Source of the DNA: a virus
DNA: 41,753 bases
Reading direction: 5' to 3' (one strand)
Virus genome (UHGV): UHGV-0240563
In this document: positions 5,338-13,914 of the stretch, piece after piece
How positions within the stretch are numbered: the first letter of the stretch is position 1
How the letters are laid out: each line of letters starts with the position of its first letter
The notes under the pieces: model-generated
Told to the model about the DNA's origin: nothing
Database searches by the model: none
Seen by the model: only the letters and a program-made list of their open reading frames with translations
Position numbers and translations under genes: made by a program

Positions 5338-5676
5338 ATGATGGATGAATTAACAAAAGCAGAGCTAGCCCGTATCCGTGACGAGGATCAGCGCCAGAAC
5401 CGGCGCATTGAGCTGCTGGAGGATATGAGTAAGGTGATCCAGGATCTGGTGCTGTCCATCCATGGCCTTGCAAAAGACATGGAGCAGATGCTTCAGGAAC
5501 AGAAGGAGCAGGGGAAACGTCTGGATAACCAGAGTAAGCGTCTGGATGCCTTGGAGAAAGAGCCGGGCAACACTTATAAGGATATCAAAAAAACAGCAGT
5601 CACAGCGATAGTAAGCGCGCTTGCCGGATCACTGGCAACCGGGCTTATTTTAATTTTGTCGCAGACTATCCATTGA
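5338..5676 (+). CDS. XhlA-like lysis-associated membrane protein
   Basis: 112 aa with an N-terminal coiled coil (ELLEDMSKVIQDL…KRLDALEKE) and a single C-terminal TM helix, the PBSX XhlA architecture. It directly precedes a holin-like gene. Confidence 0.5.
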   Translation: MMDELTKAELARIRDEDQRQNRRIELLEDMSKVIQDLVLSIHGLAKDMEQMLQEQKEQGKRLDNQSKRLDALEKEPGNTYKDIKKTAVTAIVSALAGSLATGLILILSQTIH

Positions 5677-5692: not shown

Positions 5693-5923
5693 ATGCTTAA
5701 GAACTGTGTATTTAGGGCTGATGTGGATACCCGCCAGTGGATCCATGCGGCAGGCAGGAGAGCGGTCAAGACCATGGCGCAGACATTTGTCGCCACCATC
5801 GGCTCGGCAGCGGTCATGGGTGAGGTCAACTGGCCTATGGTAGCCAGCGCATCCGGGCTGGCAGGTATCCTGTCAGTGGCAACATCCGTTGCAGGCCTTC
5901 CGGAACTGCCAGCCAAGACCTGA
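5693..5923 (+). CDS. Holin (two TM helices, phiLC3/class II-like)
   Basis: 76 aa: short charged N-terminus, two hydrophobic helices, charged C-terminus. GGAGGTGAGG RBS. Confidence 0.5.
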   Translation: MLKNCVFRADVDTRQWIHAAGRRAVKTMAQTFVATIGSAAVMGEVNWPMVASASGLAGILSVATSVAGLPELPAKT

Positions 5924-9106: not shown

Positions 9107-9910
9107 ATGGAGATAAGACGAGAGATTAAGCAGATAAACTGTTACGCAGGTCAAAACCGTCCTGAGTGGATTGTAATCCATGAGACAGACAATTATAAAA
9201 AAGGTGCCGGCGCACTTAAACACGCTCAGGCCCATAAAAACGGCAACCTGTCCACGTCTGTGCATTGGTATGTGGACGATACGGTAGCAGTACAGACGTT
9301 GTATTACAGCGACGGTGCATACGCAGTCGGTAGACAATATGGTACGCCTCTGGTGGCAGGCGTTACCAACACCAACAGCATTAACATCGAGATCTGCGTC
9401 AACCCGGACTCTAATTATGATACCGCCCGTGCTAACTGCGTGGAACTTGTACGCCAGATCATGGCAGAGACAGGTATCAGTGCCGATCATGTAATCCGGC
9501 ACTATGATGCAAAGCGCAAGCACTGCCCCCGTAAGATGCTGGATCAGCCGCAGTTATGGACAGACTTCAAGGCAGCGCTCGTGGAGCCACAGAGAAAATC
9601 CGGCTGGCAGCAGGAGGATGGCGGTTGGCGCTACTACCTCGGCAACGGTCAGCCAGTCCGAAACGATTGGTACTGGTACGAGGACAAGTGGTACTGGTTC
9701 GACGGCTCCGGCATAATGGTGCATGATACATGGTACAAGTATAAAGACCACTGGTACTACCTGGGTGCTGATGGTGCTATGGTAACAGGACAGCAGACGA
9801 TAGACGGTAAGTGGTACATCATGGATACTGAGGGCCGCATGATTGTGGAGCCGGTGACGCTTACACCGGATCAGGATGGGGCGCTGAGATGGCCGGGGCT
9901 GGCGGAATAA
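9107..9910 (+). CDS. Endolysin: N-acetylmuramoyl-L-alanine amidase (Amidase_2/PGRP) with C-terminal CW_binding_1 repeats
   Basis: 'IVIHETDN…SVHWYVDD…ADHVIRHYDAKRKHCP' matches the Amidase_2 zinc-site pattern. C-terminal repeats GWxxEDGGWRYY / DKWYWFDGSG / DHWYYLGADG / GKWYIMDTEG are choline-binding-type cell-wall repeats. Confidence 0.85.
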   Translation: MEIRREIKQINCYAGQNRPEWIVIHETDNYKKGAGALKHAQAHKNGNLSTSVHWYVDDTVAVQTLYYSDGAYAVGRQYGTPLVAGVTNTNSINIEICVNPDSNYDTARANCVELVRQIMAETGISADHVIRHYDAKRKHCPRKMLDQPQLWTDFKAALVEPQRKSGWQQEDGGWRYYLGNGQPVRNDWYWYEDKWYWFDGSGIMVHDTWYKYKDHWYYLGADGAMVTGQQTIDGKWYIMDTEGRMIVEPVTLTPDQDGALRWPGLAE

Positions 9911-9929
9911 AAAGGTAGAAAAAGAAGTA

Positions 9930-9956
9930 GCAGGGACAATATGGATGTGATATAAT
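9930..9956 (+). promoter_or_regulatory. Candidate promoter with extended -10 (TGaTATAAT) for the small peptide gene
   Basis: GGACAA about 17 nt upstream of TGATATAAT at 9947-9955. Confidence 0.3.
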
Positions 9957-10003
9957 GCTGATGTTACCGCCTCCTATACTGGTAAGGAAGGGAGGTGCTT
10001 ACT

Positions 10004-10090
10004 ATGGAATTTATTATATCCTTTATCGTCGCTGTCGCGGCTGGTGTGGTTTGCCACTACATCATCAAATGGTTGGACGGCGATAAATAA
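10004..10090 (+). CDS. 28-aa hydrophobic peptide, candidate Fst/Ldr-like type I toxin
   Basis: GGAGG at 9991-9995 is 8 nt from the ATG. Peptide MEFIISFIVAVAAGVVCHYIIKWLDGDK is one TM helix plus a charged tail. It has its own promoter and a bidirectional terminator. It was not in the ORF track because it is under 60 aa. Confidence 0.4.
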   Translation: MEFIISFIVAVAAGVVCHYIIKWLDGDK

Positions 10091-10140
10091 CCGGTAACCA
10101 GCCTGTGGGGTTAAGCCTTCCCACTCCAAAAATAGGAATA

Positions 10141-10217
10141 GAAAAACCCGAAGGTCTCGCACACCTCCGGGTTTTTTGTTGTCGCTCACTATGGAACAAC
10201 TATATCCTTTATTGCCT
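10141..10217 (-). ncRNA. Candidate antisense sRNA convergent to the small-peptide mRNA
   Basis: Minus-strand promoter TTGCAT (10252-10247), 17 nt spacer, TGcTATAAT (10232-10224). The transcript would end at the shared terminator and contains GTTCCATAGTGAG, complementary to the mRNA start-codon region CUUACUAUGGAAU. Confidence 0.25.
10145..10180. terminator. Bidirectional rho-independent terminator
   Basis: CCCGAAGGtctcgcacaCCTCCGGG hairpin flanked by AAAAA on the left and TTTTTTG on the right. Confidence 0.6.
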
Positions 10218-10324
10218 ACTGGCATTATAGCATATGCAATTCTGAAATGCAATATCCCTGAAAATCTTTTGATTCTATGTTTTTGGCAGTCACCCCTTAT
10301 ATAGGAAGAAATATCATAATATTC

Positions 10325-11470
10325 TTAGCTTTTTACCAATCGCAATATTGGTTTGCGCCGCTGATTGAAATCGTCAAAAAATTCATCTGGCAATCCACAG
10401 ATACATTTTAAATCATCAATAGATAATCCAGATGCATTGATAAATGCAGTTTTAGTAATTATCCTATTATCGATCAAAAGATAGACTGCGTCACGTATCA
10501 TTTCGGGTTCGGCAATTGTTAAAATATCATCTAACGGCTCTTTATGCCAATACTTTTTTGTGGTCATTTGTCGCTTTAAATAATTTATTTGATTTTCCGT
10601 TAGCAATTCAAGTGTCTCACAACGCTTAATAATGGTGGACATAGCACATCCCCATTTTTTTTTAACAGCCTCTAATGAAATTAGAGAGGTGCTTCGTATA
10701 TCTTTTGGGAATGATGTTGCCGGAAGTAAAAATGCTGCTGCAAATCGATCTGCCTGCATATCTGCTAGATCAACGATTTCTTTTTTAACAGAATCATCTT
10801 CTGCGATAGAACTATGCATTATAAGATGTCCTAATTCATGTAAGATGCTAAATCTAGTACGTACAGCACTCTTAGGAATCGAATGGTACAAAATATATGG
10901 TGTCCCATCTTTCCAACAAGAAAAAGCATCTATACCTTTGAAAGCACAGAAACTATTTGTGGCAAATTGTGTTACGATAACACCTTTATTTTCCAATAAT
11001 CCTATTAAATCATTGATCGGATCATCGTCTATATCCCAATCTTTGCGAATAGTTAGTGCTATTTCCTCAATATCTTCAAAGGATAAATCTTCGTAGTTCT
11101 TGTCGATTGTCGGAAGATCCCGTTCAATAAAATCAACATATTTCTCGAGTTGTTTTTTTATTTCGTCAGTCCACTTTATCTGATATTTGCATGCTGTTTT
11201 AACTTTTTTAGCAATATTAGATTTAGAGCGAAAAAATAATGGACTACTACCAGCATTGATTTTTGCTTCTGATTTATAAAAAAACTCTGTAGGAAACCCA
11301 AGACTATATGAAATGGCCTGTAGCATTTCCGGCGAAGGACGCACTATACCTCGTTCATATTTTGAAATAGATTGCCTTGTAACGCCAATGTCACTAGCTA
11401 AATCTTCCATAGATTTAGCACGAGCTTCCCGAGCTTCTGTTATGCGGGAAGATATAATTGTGCTAGTCAT
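10325..11470 (-). CDS. Fused HTH_XRE DNA-binding domain plus ImmA/IrrE (COG2856) zinc metallopeptidase
   Basis: N-terminus 'LASDIGVTRQSISKYERG' is an XRE helix-turn-helix. 'ILHELGHLIMH…ADRFAAAFLLP' is the ImmA/IrrE HExxH plus downstream Glu-Ala motif. Its start overlaps the stop of the upstream gene (ATGA). Confidence 0.75.
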   Translation of the reverse strand: MTSTIISSRITEAREARAKSMEDLASDIGVTRQSISKYERGIVRPSPEMLQAISYSLGFPTEFFYKSEAKINAGSSPLFFRSKSNIAKKVKTACKYQIKWTDEIKKQLEKYVDFIERDLPTIDKNYEDLSFEDIEEIALTIRKDWDIDDDPINDLIGLLENKGVIVTQFATNSFCAFKGIDAFSCWKDGTPYILYHSIPKSAVRTRFSILHELGHLIMHSSIAEDDSVKKEIVDLADMQADRFAAAFLLPATSFPKDIRSTSLISLEAVKKKWGCAMSTIIKRCETLELLTENQINYLKRQMTTKKYWHKEPLDDILTIAEPEMIRDAVYLLIDNRIITKTAFINASGLSIDDLKCICGLPDEFFDDFNQRRKPILRLVKS

Positions 11471-12096
11471 GAAATATTCTCCTCAATTCCATGCGCTAAG
11501 AACTCTTTCTTTAATACAGCTTTTTTTCGTTCAAATACTTTCATGTTTTCATTTTCAGTGGTTAGACTAATTTGAGGAAGGGGTAAACATTCTGCAATAC
11601 CAGTATATCCAGGTTCTGGAAACTGAACAACAGAAAACGTCTGATTGCGTCCTCCAAATGCTAAAATAGCATAATAAGGTTCATTGCTATAAGGAGGTGT
11701 TTCATCAAAGTCAATAACCATCTGTCTCTGTAATGCATGATTATTGTTTGATAGTCTGATCTTGTACTTTGAAGCATAAGGTAATAAATCAGGTGCTGAA
11801 CTACGTGCAACATGAAGGATTACATTTTTATTTCTGAGTTCTGGTATCAGTTGCTTGCATCGAAACTCACGTTGAATAAATTCAAACGGAAATTTCGGGT
11901 CATGGCTCTCAATCTCACATTGCATTTGCACTAGTTTTGTCCGTAACCGTCCTCTTGTGTCAGCAAAATAGGGGTGTCCCAACATTGGGCGTTGCGTTTC
12001 CATAAGCTCACGATAGGTTACATCGCCGACCTGCACGATTGATGCCAGTGTTTTAAGTTCACGAGAAGTAAAAATATCTTTAAACTGAGTAAGCAT
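11467..12096 (-). CDS. Hypothetical 209-aa protein, first gene of the operon with the HTH-ImmA fusion; candidate toxin/effector
   Basis: AGGAGG sits 4 nt before the second in-frame ATG at 12096 (the track ORF starts at 12120). No recognisable motif. AT-rich. Confidence 0.55.
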   Translation of the reverse strand: MLTQFKDIFTSRELKTLASIVQVGDVTYRELMETQRPMLGHPYFADTRGRLRTKLVQMQCEIESHDPKFPFEFIQREFRCKQLIPELRNKNVILHVARSSAPDLLPYASKYKIRLSNNNHALQRQMVIDFDETPPYSNEPYYAILAFGGRNQTFSVVQFPEPGYTGIAECLPLPQISLTTENENMKVFERKKAVLKKEFLAHGIEENIS

Positions 12097-12125
12097 ATGT
12101 CCTCCTATATTTTTAATCATGAGCC

Positions 12126-12435: not shown

Positions 12436-13914
12436 TTATGATGTGTAGTAAAAGAACGTAAAACTCCGGGTTTCCCGGTCAAATACTATCTTTTCGCAGA
12501 GAGACCGCAGAGCGTTGCCCTTAGTTTCGTTGTCTGCGGTCGGATCGGAAAGTACTTGATACACACAGGACACCTTTGCCATCATTTCAGCCTGATCCGG
12601 TGGAGCCGCCTCTGTTTGCTGGGCCTTTTGCCGGAGCTGATCCAGGGCGTTCTCCAGTTCCTTGCGTTCTGCGTTCAGGCGTAGTTTGTTCTGCTTATAT
12701 TCTTCCAGGGTATCTATTTCATTTTCATATGCCTCCCGGATGCGTCGCTCTTTCACCGTGATGCGTTCGAGGGCTTCTTTTATTGCAATTTCTTCCTCGC
12801 TTATGTCATTTTCGGTTTTTGGGATGTGTTCATATTCAAGGTGGTTATTTCTAAGGGCTTTCTCCAAAGACCGGAGCACGGTACGTTCTGCGATTCGGGC
12901 GGATACACAGCAGGAGCCAGGGTGGAAGCCTTTGGCGTATTTCCAGCACTGGAAGAAGTCCGGGCGCTTCTTCTGATCGTTGGAGCGGTTGAAGCCCAGG
13001 CTGCTACCGCAGACTCCGCAGAACAGCATCCCTGACAGCCAATGAGCGTTGGCGGAAGCTTCCCGGCGTTTTTTAGGGCGGTATTCAGAGGTTATACGCT
13101 TCTGAACATCGTCAAATACAGAGGTGACAGCTGGCCGGGTTTCGTGGGTTCCTTGAAAGGTGATTCCGTTCCATGAGACCTCTCCGGTGTAAAAATGATT
13201 GGTAAGGATTCTGTAGATGGCCCTGCGGTCGAAGAGATTCCCTCTTTGAGTGCGGTACCCTATGGTGTTTACAGATCTGGCAATACCGGTCATATCCCTG
13301 CCGCTGTGGTAGGCCTGAAATATATATTCCACGATGGAATAGGCATCCTCATCAATGAGGAAGGGTTTCCCATCGCCCACAGCCTTATATCCTAAGCATG
13401 GGGCGGTCTGGTAACCTTCACGCAGCGCCTTCTCCGTCATGCCCCTCTTGACCTCCCCGGAGAGGTTGAAGGAGTAGTATTCGTCAAACCACTCTATGAT
13501 GGTTTCAATCAGCCGCCCGAACATACCTTCCATGATGGGCTCTGATATGCTTTTGATCTCAATGCCGCATTTCTTTCGCAGGATGCCTTTGTAAAAGGTA
13601 CTTTCTTCCTGATTCCGGGCGAACCGGGAGAATTTCCAGAGGTACAGACGTTTGAATGGTGCAGGCTTCTGGGATTTGGCAATGGCAATCATGCGCTGGA
13701 ACTCCGGGCGGTTGTCTGCCTTGCGGCCGGAAATACCCTTTTTCTCCTCGAAAATGTATTCCTTGGGGATTACGAAGCCGTCTGCTTTGGCGGCATCCAG
13801 AATCATACGCAGCTGGGCATCCGGGGAGAGTTCTGTCTGGTCGTCGGTACTGACACGGATGTAGGCGGCCCCGATTTCCAAGGGTTGTGCATTGCTGGTG
13901 GATAATTGTGACAT
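12436..13914 (-). CDS. int: Large serine recombinase (phage integrase)
   Basis: N-terminal resolvase catalytic domain ('AAYIRVSTDDQ', 'FSRFARN'), recombinase domain, zinc ribbon (CGVCGSS…CWKY) and C-terminal coiled coil. AAGGAG RBS. Confidence 0.9.
   Translation of the reverse strand: MSQLSTSNAQPLEIGAAYIRVSTDDQTELSPDAQLRMILDAAKADGFVIPKEYIFEEKKGISGRKADNRPEFQRMIAIAKSQKPAPFKRLYLWKFSRFARNQEESTFYKGILRKKCGIEIKSISEPIMEGMFGRLIETIIEWFDEYYSFNLSGEVKRGMTEKALREGYQTAPCLGYKAVGDGKPFLIDEDAYSIVEYIFQAYHSGRDMTGIARSVNTIGYRTQRGNLFDRRAIYRILTNHFYTGEVSWNGITFQGTHETRPAVTSVFDDVQKRITSEYRPKKRREASANAHWLSGMLFCGVCGSSLGFNRSNDQKKRPDFFQCWKYAKGFHPGSCCVSARIAERTVLRSLEKALRNNHLEYEHIPKTENDISEEEIAIKEALERITVKERRIREAYENEIDTLEEYKQNKLRLNAERKELENALDQLRQKAQQTEAAPPDQAEMMAKVSCVYQVLSDPTADNETKGNALRSLCEKIVFDRETRSFTFFYYTS

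Follow-up and report, generated by a model that had tools for sequence, protein, structure and literature searches.

A temperate Lachnospiraceae phage with a probable par/Fst-like type I toxin–antitoxin cassette at its lysis end

Introduction

Par-like type I toxin–antitoxin (TA) loci have been described as having convergent promoters, direct repeats (DRa and DRb) that are crossed in opposite directions and a bidirectional terminator, along with a 5′ stem-loop hiding the ribosome-binding site (RBS), a 5′ upstream helix and a YUNR loop (PMC7472228). Fst/Ldr toxins share a conserved tryptophan between the transmembrane (TM) helix and a charged tail, and a P/D/S/T-xxx-G(C) motif, with the proline being essential for toxicity in Fst and Lpt (PMC7472228). 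As to the Fst family in T1TAdb, the antisense RNA overlaps the mRNA at its 3′ end rather than in the open reading frame (ORF), and pairing takes place outside the overlap. Here we analyzed a 41,753-nt virus genome (UHGV-0240563; this whole stretch of DNA is referred to as the window), in which positions 9948–10252 very probably represent a par/Fst-like type I TA cassette, a moron that a temperate Lachnospiraceae phage carries at its lysis end. An original prediction, made from the letters of the genome, had proposed a candidate Fst-like locus at this site.

Several further systems provide points of comparison. The Streptococcus pneumoniae Fst-B locus yields a 65–75-nt antisense RNA and a peptide that is toxic when overproduced in Escherichia coli, and an Fst-like sequence from Clostridium bolteae (Lachnospiraceae) is listed in the same work (PMC2887945). 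The functions of chromosomal Fst homologues are obscure (PMC7472228). Prophage-borne type I TAs of Clostridioides difficile stabilize their prophage (phiCD630-1) and plasmids (PMC7699646). Lastly, 5′–3′ closure, which keeps the toxin mRNA translationally inert, is described as general in such systems (PMC7472228; PMC6733600).

Results

Layout of the cassette

The toxin side lies on the plus strand. An extended −10 box, TGATATAAT, was read from the sequence at 9948–9956, and the best −35 upstream of it, TAGCAG (9928–9933), matches at three of six positions. In 102 of 124 unique relatives, TGnTAnAAT stands at constant spacing, 6 nt 5′ of the GTT 5′ end, and across the family the −35 is weak (TAGAAT/TGGAAA-like). 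From the predicted transcription start site (TSS), the toxin mRNA—an RNA I analogue of ~215 nt—would extend from 9963 to 10177. A weak match to the Rfam model RefB11 (par RNA I) begins exactly at 9963, and the Rfam SpF66 consensus also opens with GUUACC, as the predicted mRNA does. These nucleotides (9963–9968) are the 5′ arm of a long-range helix that closes the mRNA, with the partner GGUAAC (10093–10098) directly 3′ of the stop codon. Next come an anti-Shine-Dalgarno (anti-SD) sequence, CCGCCTCC (9967–9974), whose region includes the pairing segment GCCUCCU (9969–9975), and the SD itself, GGGAGGUG (9990–9997; GGAGGTG, 9991–9997), 6 nt 5′ of the ATG. The ORF (10004–10090; ATG at 10004, TAA ending at 10090) encodes a peptide of 28 amino acids (aa), MEFIISFIVAVAAGVVCHYIIKWLDGDK, and harbors a long hairpin (10028–10084) that is recovered both by single-sequence folding and by RNAalifold.

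Two segments around the toxin start are repeated downstream: DRa, which takes in the SD's end, the spacer and the start codon (9997–10009), as DRa′ (10184–10196, 12/13 identical), and DRb, which covers codons 4–8 (10015–10026), as DRb′ (10201–10212, 12/12 identical). A repeat finder placed a bidirectional intrinsic terminator, common to both RNAs, at 10142–10176; its 14-nt arms (10142–10155 and 10163–10176) are 93% complementary around a 7-nt loop and are flanked by A5 upstream and T6 downstream. The stem contains an internal A·C mismatch, which the near-identical relative L002 repairs (CCTCCGGG to CCTTCGGG), and hairpins at this place in the family have a median energy of −21.7 kcal/mol, again with an A-rich flank upstream and a T-rich flank downstream. 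On the minus strand, TTGCAT (10252–10247), a 17-nt spacer and TGcTATAAT (10232–10224) compose the putative antitoxin promoter (10224–10252), from which an RNA II analogue of ~77 nt (10141–10217) is predicted. DRa′ and DRb′ (10184–10212, read on the minus strand) are the antisense segment complementary to the toxin SD, start and first codons. At the terminator, the antisense RNA overlaps the mRNA's 3′ end, and the ORF, ending at 10090, lies outside the overlap.

Family medians of the predicted RNA lengths are 211 nt for the toxin mRNA and 72 nt for the antisense RNA. The antisense promoter consensus is TTGCAA-17-TGCTATAAT; the TTG of its −35 is at least 90% conserved, though it falls outside the patterns used to gather the family, and the promoter motif is present too in relatives gathered by peptide similarity alone. 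A poor toxin −35 next to a near-consensus antisense promoter fits an excess of antitoxin. The promoters and the terminator all escaped a generic promoter and terminator scan of the window; for the terminator, the stem mismatch is the most likely reason, and the toxin promoter depends on an extended −10.

All elements listed in the original prediction are present. The SD, the 28-aa ORF and the anti-SD are all found at the sequence level, the minus-strand promoter occupies the positions it was given, the repeat finder agrees on a bidirectional terminator with A5/T6 flanks, and the proposed par-like organization—convergent promoters, a common terminator and direct repeats over SD and start that are read in opposite directions—holds with two repeats. 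Some details changed: the extended −10 is present, one base away from the 9947–9955 assigned to it; the antisense RNA comes out at ~77 rather than roughly 75 nt, its complementarity to the initiation region being upheld; and the repeat at the start codon is real but is accompanied by a second, exact 12-nt repeat that had been overlooked. With the promoters recognized by motif, every architectural feature of par is found in the cassette except the YUNR loop.

Predicted cognate pairing of antisense RNA and toxin mRNA

The predicted antisense RNA has a folding energy of −28.2 kcal/mol (z = −4.4) over 10217 down to 10141, and its 5′ 17 nt, the DRb complement included, stay unpaired. Its 5′ 38 nt can form a duplex of −42.4 kcal/mol with the mRNA at 9994–10031, a stretch from the last bases of the SD up to and including codon 9, as compared to −22.1 ± 3.0 in 1000 dinucleotide shuffles, none of which was as good (0/1000). 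The antisense duplex that had been proposed is hence stable relative to shuffled sequence.

This complementarity is specific to each cassette. We compared the initiation regions (−12 to +36) of 149 non-redundant cassettes with the 44 nt upstream of every antisense start, following a pilot run on 26 cassettes. Cognate combinations scored 33.0 on average and non-cognate ones 14.3; a cassette's own partner was the best match in 116 cases and ranked among the top three in 139 (permutation, 0/5000). Median duplex energies were −35.6 and −16.2 kcal/mol for cognate and non-cognate pairs, respectively, and 89% of the former but 1.6% of the latter reached −30 kcal/mol or better. Part of the family was gathered via the antisense promoter motif, and conservation of the motif in that set is not counted as evidence. 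We therefore also examined a sample of 77 unique cassettes, gathered by the peptide motif HYIIKWLD alone (complete scan). Strong downstream copies of the cassette's own initiation region were present in 75 of them, as opposed to 0/77 in a reverse-complement control; the exact antisense promoter motif occurred in 55, and the remainder examined mostly had variant −10 boxes. Across the family, then, the antisense RNA is complementary to the initiation region of its own toxin, as the antisense reading of the locus implied, and shuffle controls together with family-wide co-variation place these features beyond chance.

A few cassettes depart from this rule or extend it. Relatives L037 and L344 are decayed cassettes and form exceptions to cognate pairing. 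L001 (12560–12840) is a natural chimera whose promoter, untranslated region (UTR) and first 24 codons are identical to those of the window and whose C-terminus, terminator and antisense segment are foreign; its predicted toxin/antisense duplex reaches only −14.2 kcal/mol, and this cassette may be unregulated or dead. Tandem cassettes with differing repeats were seen in L042 (~520 bp apart), L195, L247, L092 and L346. For the copies of L042 and L195, cross-pairing (−19 to −27 kcal/mol) is 7–13 kcal/mol weaker than cognate pairing (−31 to −34 kcal/mol), which suggests that co-resident cassettes are partly orthogonal.

Folding of the toxin mRNA

The predicted mRNA (9963–10177) has a minimum free energy (MFE) of −72.7 kcal/mol (z = −3.15), and in its MFE fold the GCCUCCU segment pairs with 9990–9996, sequestering the SD as originally supposed. 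In an alignment of 47 sequences of the window's subtype, pairwise less than 90% identical (A1), RNAalifold returned the same helices as the single-sequence fold, and 96.3% of the cells of base-paired columns were paired, compared to 40–50% with partners slid by 1–3 columns. Changes on both sides occurred at 15 pairs and in 119 cells (34 ± 5.5 in shuffles; 0/500), raw co-variation counts that are inflated by kinship among the sequences. The anti-SD:SD helix (helix 2) is paired in 96.8% of cells, and its pair 10:34 is CG in 31 and UA in 13 of the 47 sequences, a compensatory change that backs the sequestering stem-loop. In the coding-region hairpin (helices 4 and 5), 10 pairs changed on both sides, with 95.5% of cells paired.

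The closing helix GUUACC:GGUAAC is 100% paired in the 47 sequences and near-invariant within the subtype of the window; its co-variation emerges in the wider family, in which GUUACC goes with GGUAAC, and GUUGCC with GGCAAC (six modules) or GGCAAU (two). In other subtypes (GUUGUC), the only partner, GGCAAC, is local. Within the window's subtype, the 5′ GUUACC has two candidate partners, a local GGUAA(G) at 9982–9987 and the distal GGUAAC at 10093–10098, and in at least one relative (L326) both change together with the 5′ end. The two possible partners hint at alternative co-transcriptional and mature folds.

The peptide and its kinship to Fst toxins

Mean column entropies at codon positions 1, 2 and 3 of 58 unique 28-codon genes were 0.82, 0.39 and 0.97, a pattern indicative of selection on a hydrophobic peptide and of an ORF that codes in the plus-strand frame. 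The peptide comprises a single predicted TM helix, W-L-D and a charged tail, and the family consensus reads M-E-x-x-x-S-F-x-V-x-V-x-A-G-V-x-C-H-Y-I-x-K-W-L-D-G-D. W23, L24 and D25 are invariant among 51 aligned members, preceded by a hydrophobic stretch of 20 residues and followed by a D/K/N/E-rich tail. Start codons in the 149 cassettes are ATG (86), TTG (35) and GTG (28). Where Fst has PxxxG, the TM motif of the window is A10-VAA-G14. Members of 28 aa have A (39), T (13) or S (10) at position 10 and G14 in 51 of 62, and the spacing of 9 from this glycine to the tryptophan is the same as in Fst, PepA1 and the SpF66 peptide.

We aligned the family profile (A2) to a profile of seven PGAP-annotated plasmid Fst toxins, which mostly end ...HWLDEKDDN or similar, plus PepA1 (A3). 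hhalign gave a probability of 95.7% and a score of 34.9 over 31 columns, end to end, and the sole gap is one residue, at the Fst proline. Column shuffles scored 8.7 ± 2.1 (maximum 16.0; 0/250) and TM-only shuffles 22 ± 3.5 (maximum 34.3; 0/150), to be read in view of the fact that short hydrophobic peptides can inflate profile scores. The comparison of the peptide with Fst/Ldr models that had been envisaged came out negative, as no curated model reaches its threshold, and kinship therefore rests on the profile–profile comparison and the common W-L-D charged tail. By these measures, the family peptides qualify as remote homologues of the Fst toxins.

Besides the influence of kinship and hydrophobicity on the scores above, several results weigh against an assignment to par/Fst. 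The conserved Fst-family proline is an alanine in the window peptide. None of the members tested matched NF033608 (cut-off 26 bits), a model on which the positive controls scored 34.7 bits (Fst of pAD1), 58.3 bits (PepA1) and 41–50 bits (two further Fst toxins). Matches to PF13955 (cut-off 36 bits) were weak and confined to 3 of 51 members, with a best E of 0.011; those to PF13940 were below threshold and seen in 5 of 51 (best E 0.074). At the RNA level, the window scored 13.5 bits on RF02848 RefB11 (gathering score 54) and 9.6 bits on RF02442 SpF66 (gathering score 42) and did not match RF02844 RefA9; in the controls, pAD1-type loci matched RefB11 and RefA9, and an Enterococcus faecium relative matched SpF66. 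At gathering thresholds, Rfam matched only a tRNA in the window. A YUNR U-turn is present in 11 of 65 unique terminator loops, about the estimated chance level (~1/5); the loop of the window, CUCGCAC, contains CUCG.

Among PDB sequences, neither Fst (2KV5) nor PepA1 was retrieved with the family profile, PADLOC returned no match to the peptide, and a full-text literature search with peptide motifs matched no paper. Eight of ten family peptides tested, that of the window included, were absent from a collection of 15 billion proteins, and one relative is named 'toxin' in NCBI nr (a Caudoviricetes metagenome-assembled genome record).

A link between the new family and the true Fst group is provided by Rfam RF02442, 'Streptococcus sRNA SpF66', which has matches in relatives L314 (361–581) and L316 (360–577). 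Its consensus encodes a 32-aa peptide, MSLILELVLTIIADVIAGIILYFVCKWLDGKE, ending CKWLDGKE, which hhalign aligned to the family without gaps (98%) and which scores 18.9 bits on NF033608. Toxin mRNAs of an E. faecium plasmid relative and a Waltera plasmid member score 67.8 and 38.6 bits, respectively, on SpF66. Just as RefB11 and RefA9 correspond to par RNA I and RNA II, SpF66 is apparently no non-coding small RNA (sRNA) but the mRNA for the toxin of a KWLD-type Fst-like type I TA; from the model consensus, we infer that it is the S. pneumoniae Fst-A/B mRNA. Its peptide is the DxxxG pneumococcal clade described previously (PMC7472228). Literature searches for SpF66 itself returned malaria-vaccine papers only.

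The regulatory architecture is seen in the sequences and toxicity is an extrapolation, and the same data might describe a small membrane protein under antisense control but without toxic action, for instance a modulator of host membrane proteins or a superinfection-exclusion factor, within a par-like RNA layout devoid of addiction. This would accord with the obscure functions of chromosomal Fst homologues (PMC7472228) and with the lack of the proline on which Fst and Lpt toxicity depends. We nevertheless consider it improbable. The profile similarity extends end to end over toxic Fst peptides and includes the Streptococcus (SpF66) clade, and overproduced S. pneumoniae Fst-B is toxic to E. coli; several layers of control (SD sequestration, 5′–3′ closure and antisense RNA) would hold translation back, and it starts at non-ATG codons in 63 of 149 cassettes, both typical of harmful products; and the cassette is enriched on small plasmids and phages.

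Relatives, carriers and genomic context

The family was gathered with degenerate DNA patterns and tblastn, and at least 191 complete cassettes (at least 165 unique, with at least 137 unique peptides, mostly of 28–33 aa) were extracted. Pattern scans returned at least 120 matches in IMG/VR and at least 120 in GTDB species genomes. The GTDB matches listed are overwhelmingly from Lachnospiraceae, among them Blautia, Dorea, Roseburia, Acetatifactor, Enterocloster and Hungatella, and a few are from Holdemanella or Oscillospiraceae; homologous cassettes were recovered from more than 80 genomes, mostly of Lachnospiraceae. Carriers include plasmids of 2–7 kb: tblastn located cassettes on small plasmids of Waltera intestinalis and Clostridium perfringens, with further plasmid matches to the peptide in, e.g., Mediterraneibacter gnavus. 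Among phage records, the peptide was found in bajarodino viruses 29, 15 and 68 (L004, L005 and L006), three inoviruses from rodent faeces with complete genomes of 7–8.5 kb and the cassette at ~1440–1740 in each locus. Their layout is the same, the downstream repeat fits each virus's own start region rather than that of the window, and the sequence around the antisense −10, GCATTATAGCATATGC, is almost unchanged. Conservation as a unit, on which the original prediction had staked its case, is therefore seen in other tailed phages, the three inoviruses, small plasmids and many Lachnospiraceae genomes. A sister branch with the same par-like layout is found on the E. faecium plasmid pA (Inc18; L314) and on a Lactococcus raffinolactis plasmid (L315); its peptides have longer tails (...AHYICKWLD...KKDSKPTR), do not match NF033608 and have no gene listed in the PLSDB gene table.

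In the window, the cassette sits between an amidase/choline-binding endolysin (9107–9910) and a block of minus-strand genes. The endolysin stop precedes its ORF by 94 nt, both genes being on one strand with no terminator between them. Such a position could suit a small membrane protein of the lysis module (a holin, an antiholin or a lysis accessory protein), to which the downstream repeats and promoter would be incidental. Sub-threshold holin matches (PF09682, E 0.16; PF16083 in 9 of 51 members, best E 0.0058; phrog_6918, E 0.05) and an endolysin homologue within 2.5 kb in ~27 of 187 related loci point the same way. The phage, however, already has a canonical r1t-type holin at 5693–5923 on the plus strand (PF16945, 52.7 bits, cut-off 26.9) and so does not need the peptide as a holin; the same cassette resides in non-lytic inoviruses and on 2–7 kb plasmids, has its own promoter and terminator amid varying neighbors, and shows cassette-specific, co-varying antisense complementarity that a holin role leaves unexplained. 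To our knowledge, no holin is as short as 28 aa. Chiefly on account of the r1t holin and the inovirus carriers, we rejected this role as very improbable. The still weaker idea that the real gene is a 92-codon minus-strand ORF (9974–10252), or that the features are chance products or recombination remnants at a prophage end, can be dismissed: a minus-strand frame is indeed open across the cassette, and depositors annotated minus-strand coding sequences (CDSs) over the homologous region in two bajarodino viruses, but the frame over the toxin CDS is open in just 54 of 130 relatives, codon-position variability agrees with the plus-strand frame, the ORF would cross a strong terminator, chance is excluded by shuffle controls and by co-variation across the family, and attachment-site or recombination remnants as a source of the repeats are ruled out by the co-variation of both copies in ~150 lineages. 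The bajarodino CDSs themselves are unrelated minus-strand annotations ('hypothetical protein', 'DNA binding protein') and are probably mis-calls.

With a par/Fst-like TA cassette as the preferred reading, its surroundings can be described as follows. Neighbors vary among relatives, with an endolysin homologue (see above) or a serine recombinase (~14 of 187 loci) within 2.5 kb, and the cassette thus behaves as a mobile unit. Downstream in the window, a minus-strand gene (10325–11470) encodes a helix-turn-helix and M78 peptidase protein that matches PADLOC RmrA over its full length (348.9 bits), and the product of the next (11467–12120, minus strand) is a weak match to RmrT (33 bits); the two have the appearance of a Rosmer-like defence pair. 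With the TA cassette, they make up a small island, accessory or defensive, that is bounded by the endolysin and a large serine recombinase (12436–13914). The lysis genes are split: between the holin and the endolysin, 3 kb further downstream, lie an 803-aa Ala/Gln-rich ORF and a 173-aa ORF. A 112-aa ORF before the holin (5338–5676, plus strand) contains a hydrophobic stretch at its C-terminus and matches no Pfam family significantly. The phage genome also contains a tRNA gene (27372–27444, plus strand; Rfam RF00005, 67.6 bits).

Discussion

The features described above suggest the following mechanism. The extended −10 promoter, with its weak −35, would yield an mRNA of ~215 nt whose 5′ end is locked to the 3′ UTR (GUUACC:GGUAAC), whose toxin SD would be hidden by pairing with the upstream anti-SD, and which would encode a single-pass membrane peptide of 28 residues related to Fst. 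The near-consensus convergent promoter would yield an antisense RNA of ~77 nt that ends at the common bidirectional terminator and pairs, through its single-stranded 5′ end and the two direct repeats, with the toxin SD, start and first nine codons. From par(pAD1), SprA1 and S. pneumoniae Fst, we infer the activity of both promoters, the relative stabilities of the RNAs, the toxicity and the post-segregational stabilizing role: the antisense RNA would be made in excess and be less stable than the mRNA, and the duplex of both would block ribosome loading. Upon loss of the element or a stop of transcription, the antisense RNA would decay and the peptide be made, leading to membrane damage or growth arrest; the cassette would thus stabilize the prophage, plasmid or inovirus that carries it.

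Our analysis supports the view of the cassette as part of a divergent, proline-less and largely unannotated clade of the known par/Fst type I TA systems, one that mobile elements of gut Lachnospiraceae carry widely and that is kin to the pneumococcal Fst-like loci. No new mechanism is involved, and our understanding of how type I TA systems work is unchanged; what is added is the scale, the carriers (inoviruses included) and the invisibility to current models. At least several hundred related loci exist in phages, inoviruses, plasmids and genomes of Lachnospiraceae, a dominant family of the human and animal gut, and they largely escape annotation; all curated protein and RNA models stay below threshold on them. 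A seed alignment is ready for new Pfam, NCBIfam and Rfam models, and the orphan Rfam sRNA family SpF66 would be explained as a toxin mRNA. The ~150 orthogonal antisense/target pairs, with their strong co-variation, constitute a natural library for studies of RNA–RNA specificity, and tools for counter-selection or stabilization in genetically difficult gut Clostridia might be derived from the cassettes.

A more speculative view, which we regard as doubtful albeit conceivable, is that the cassette is more than a stabilizer, namely a horizontally mobile weapon with diversifying specificity in the competition between mobile elements of gut Lachnospiraceae. It draws on the occurrence of cassettes in tailed phages, inoviruses and plasmids alike, on the hypervariable specificity determinants DRa and DRb, which permit orthogonal tandem copies, and on the adjacent Rosmer-like pair in the phage of the window. 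If this were true, an infecting phage that halts host transcription would cause the antisense RNA to decay and the toxin to abort the infection. The sharing of cassettes across carriers runs contrary to the conclusion, drawn in 2010, that type I TAs have little tendency to transfer horizontally.

How does the cassette compare to systems already described? It resembles par of pAD1 in its repeats DRa and DRb over SD and start, read in opposite directions, in an antisense RNA outside the ORF, in the RBS-sequestering 5′ stem-loop and, by prediction, in RNA sizes of about 210 and 65–75 nt. The toxin −10 is the same (TGATATAAT), and the antitoxin −10 is TGCTATAAT in the window and TGCTATACT in par; in the pAD1-type locus L324, RNA I has TGATATAAT and RNA II TGCTATACT, and the repeats directly follow the terminator. 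Both systems encode a TM helix of ~30 aa in total with a charged tail, and most Fst relatives end WLD(E/K)xDD. Unlike par, the cassette lacks the proline and has A/T/S-xxx-G instead of PxxxG, stays below threshold on NF033608, PF13955, RefB11 and RefA9, closes its 5′ end by a long-range helix to the 3′ UTR, has no conserved YUNR and is carried by tailed phages, inoviruses and small Clostridia plasmids rather than by enterococcal pheromone plasmids.

The S. pneumoniae Fst-A/B loci and SpF66 are similar in that the consensus opens with GUUACC and encodes ...DVIAGIILYFVCKWLDGKE, whereas the streptococcal peptide is four residues longer N-terminally and has DxxxG, and the loci are chromosomal tandem copies instead of phage-borne. 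SprA1/SprA1AS of Staphylococcus aureus, which encodes PepA1, is a par homologue whose interaction site likewise lies outside the overlap, and in a manual alignment PepA1 has an identical register (residue 10, xxx, G14, nine residues, W23-L24); it differs by its PxxxGC motif, Arg-rich tail, location on a pathogenicity island and low sequence identity. The C. difficile prophage type I TAs (CD0977.1-RCd11 and others) share small TM toxins and antisense antitoxins, inside prophages of a gut Clostridia species, yet belong to another toxin family of 34–47 aa; some of our members weakly match NF047374 (16–21 bits, cut-off 60). With hok/sok and AapA1/IsoA1, finally, the cassette has in common the long-range 5′–3′ pairing that closes the full-length toxin mRNA; in contrast to hok/sok, its toxin is unrelated, it has no leader ORF, and its antisense RNA lies at the 3′ side.

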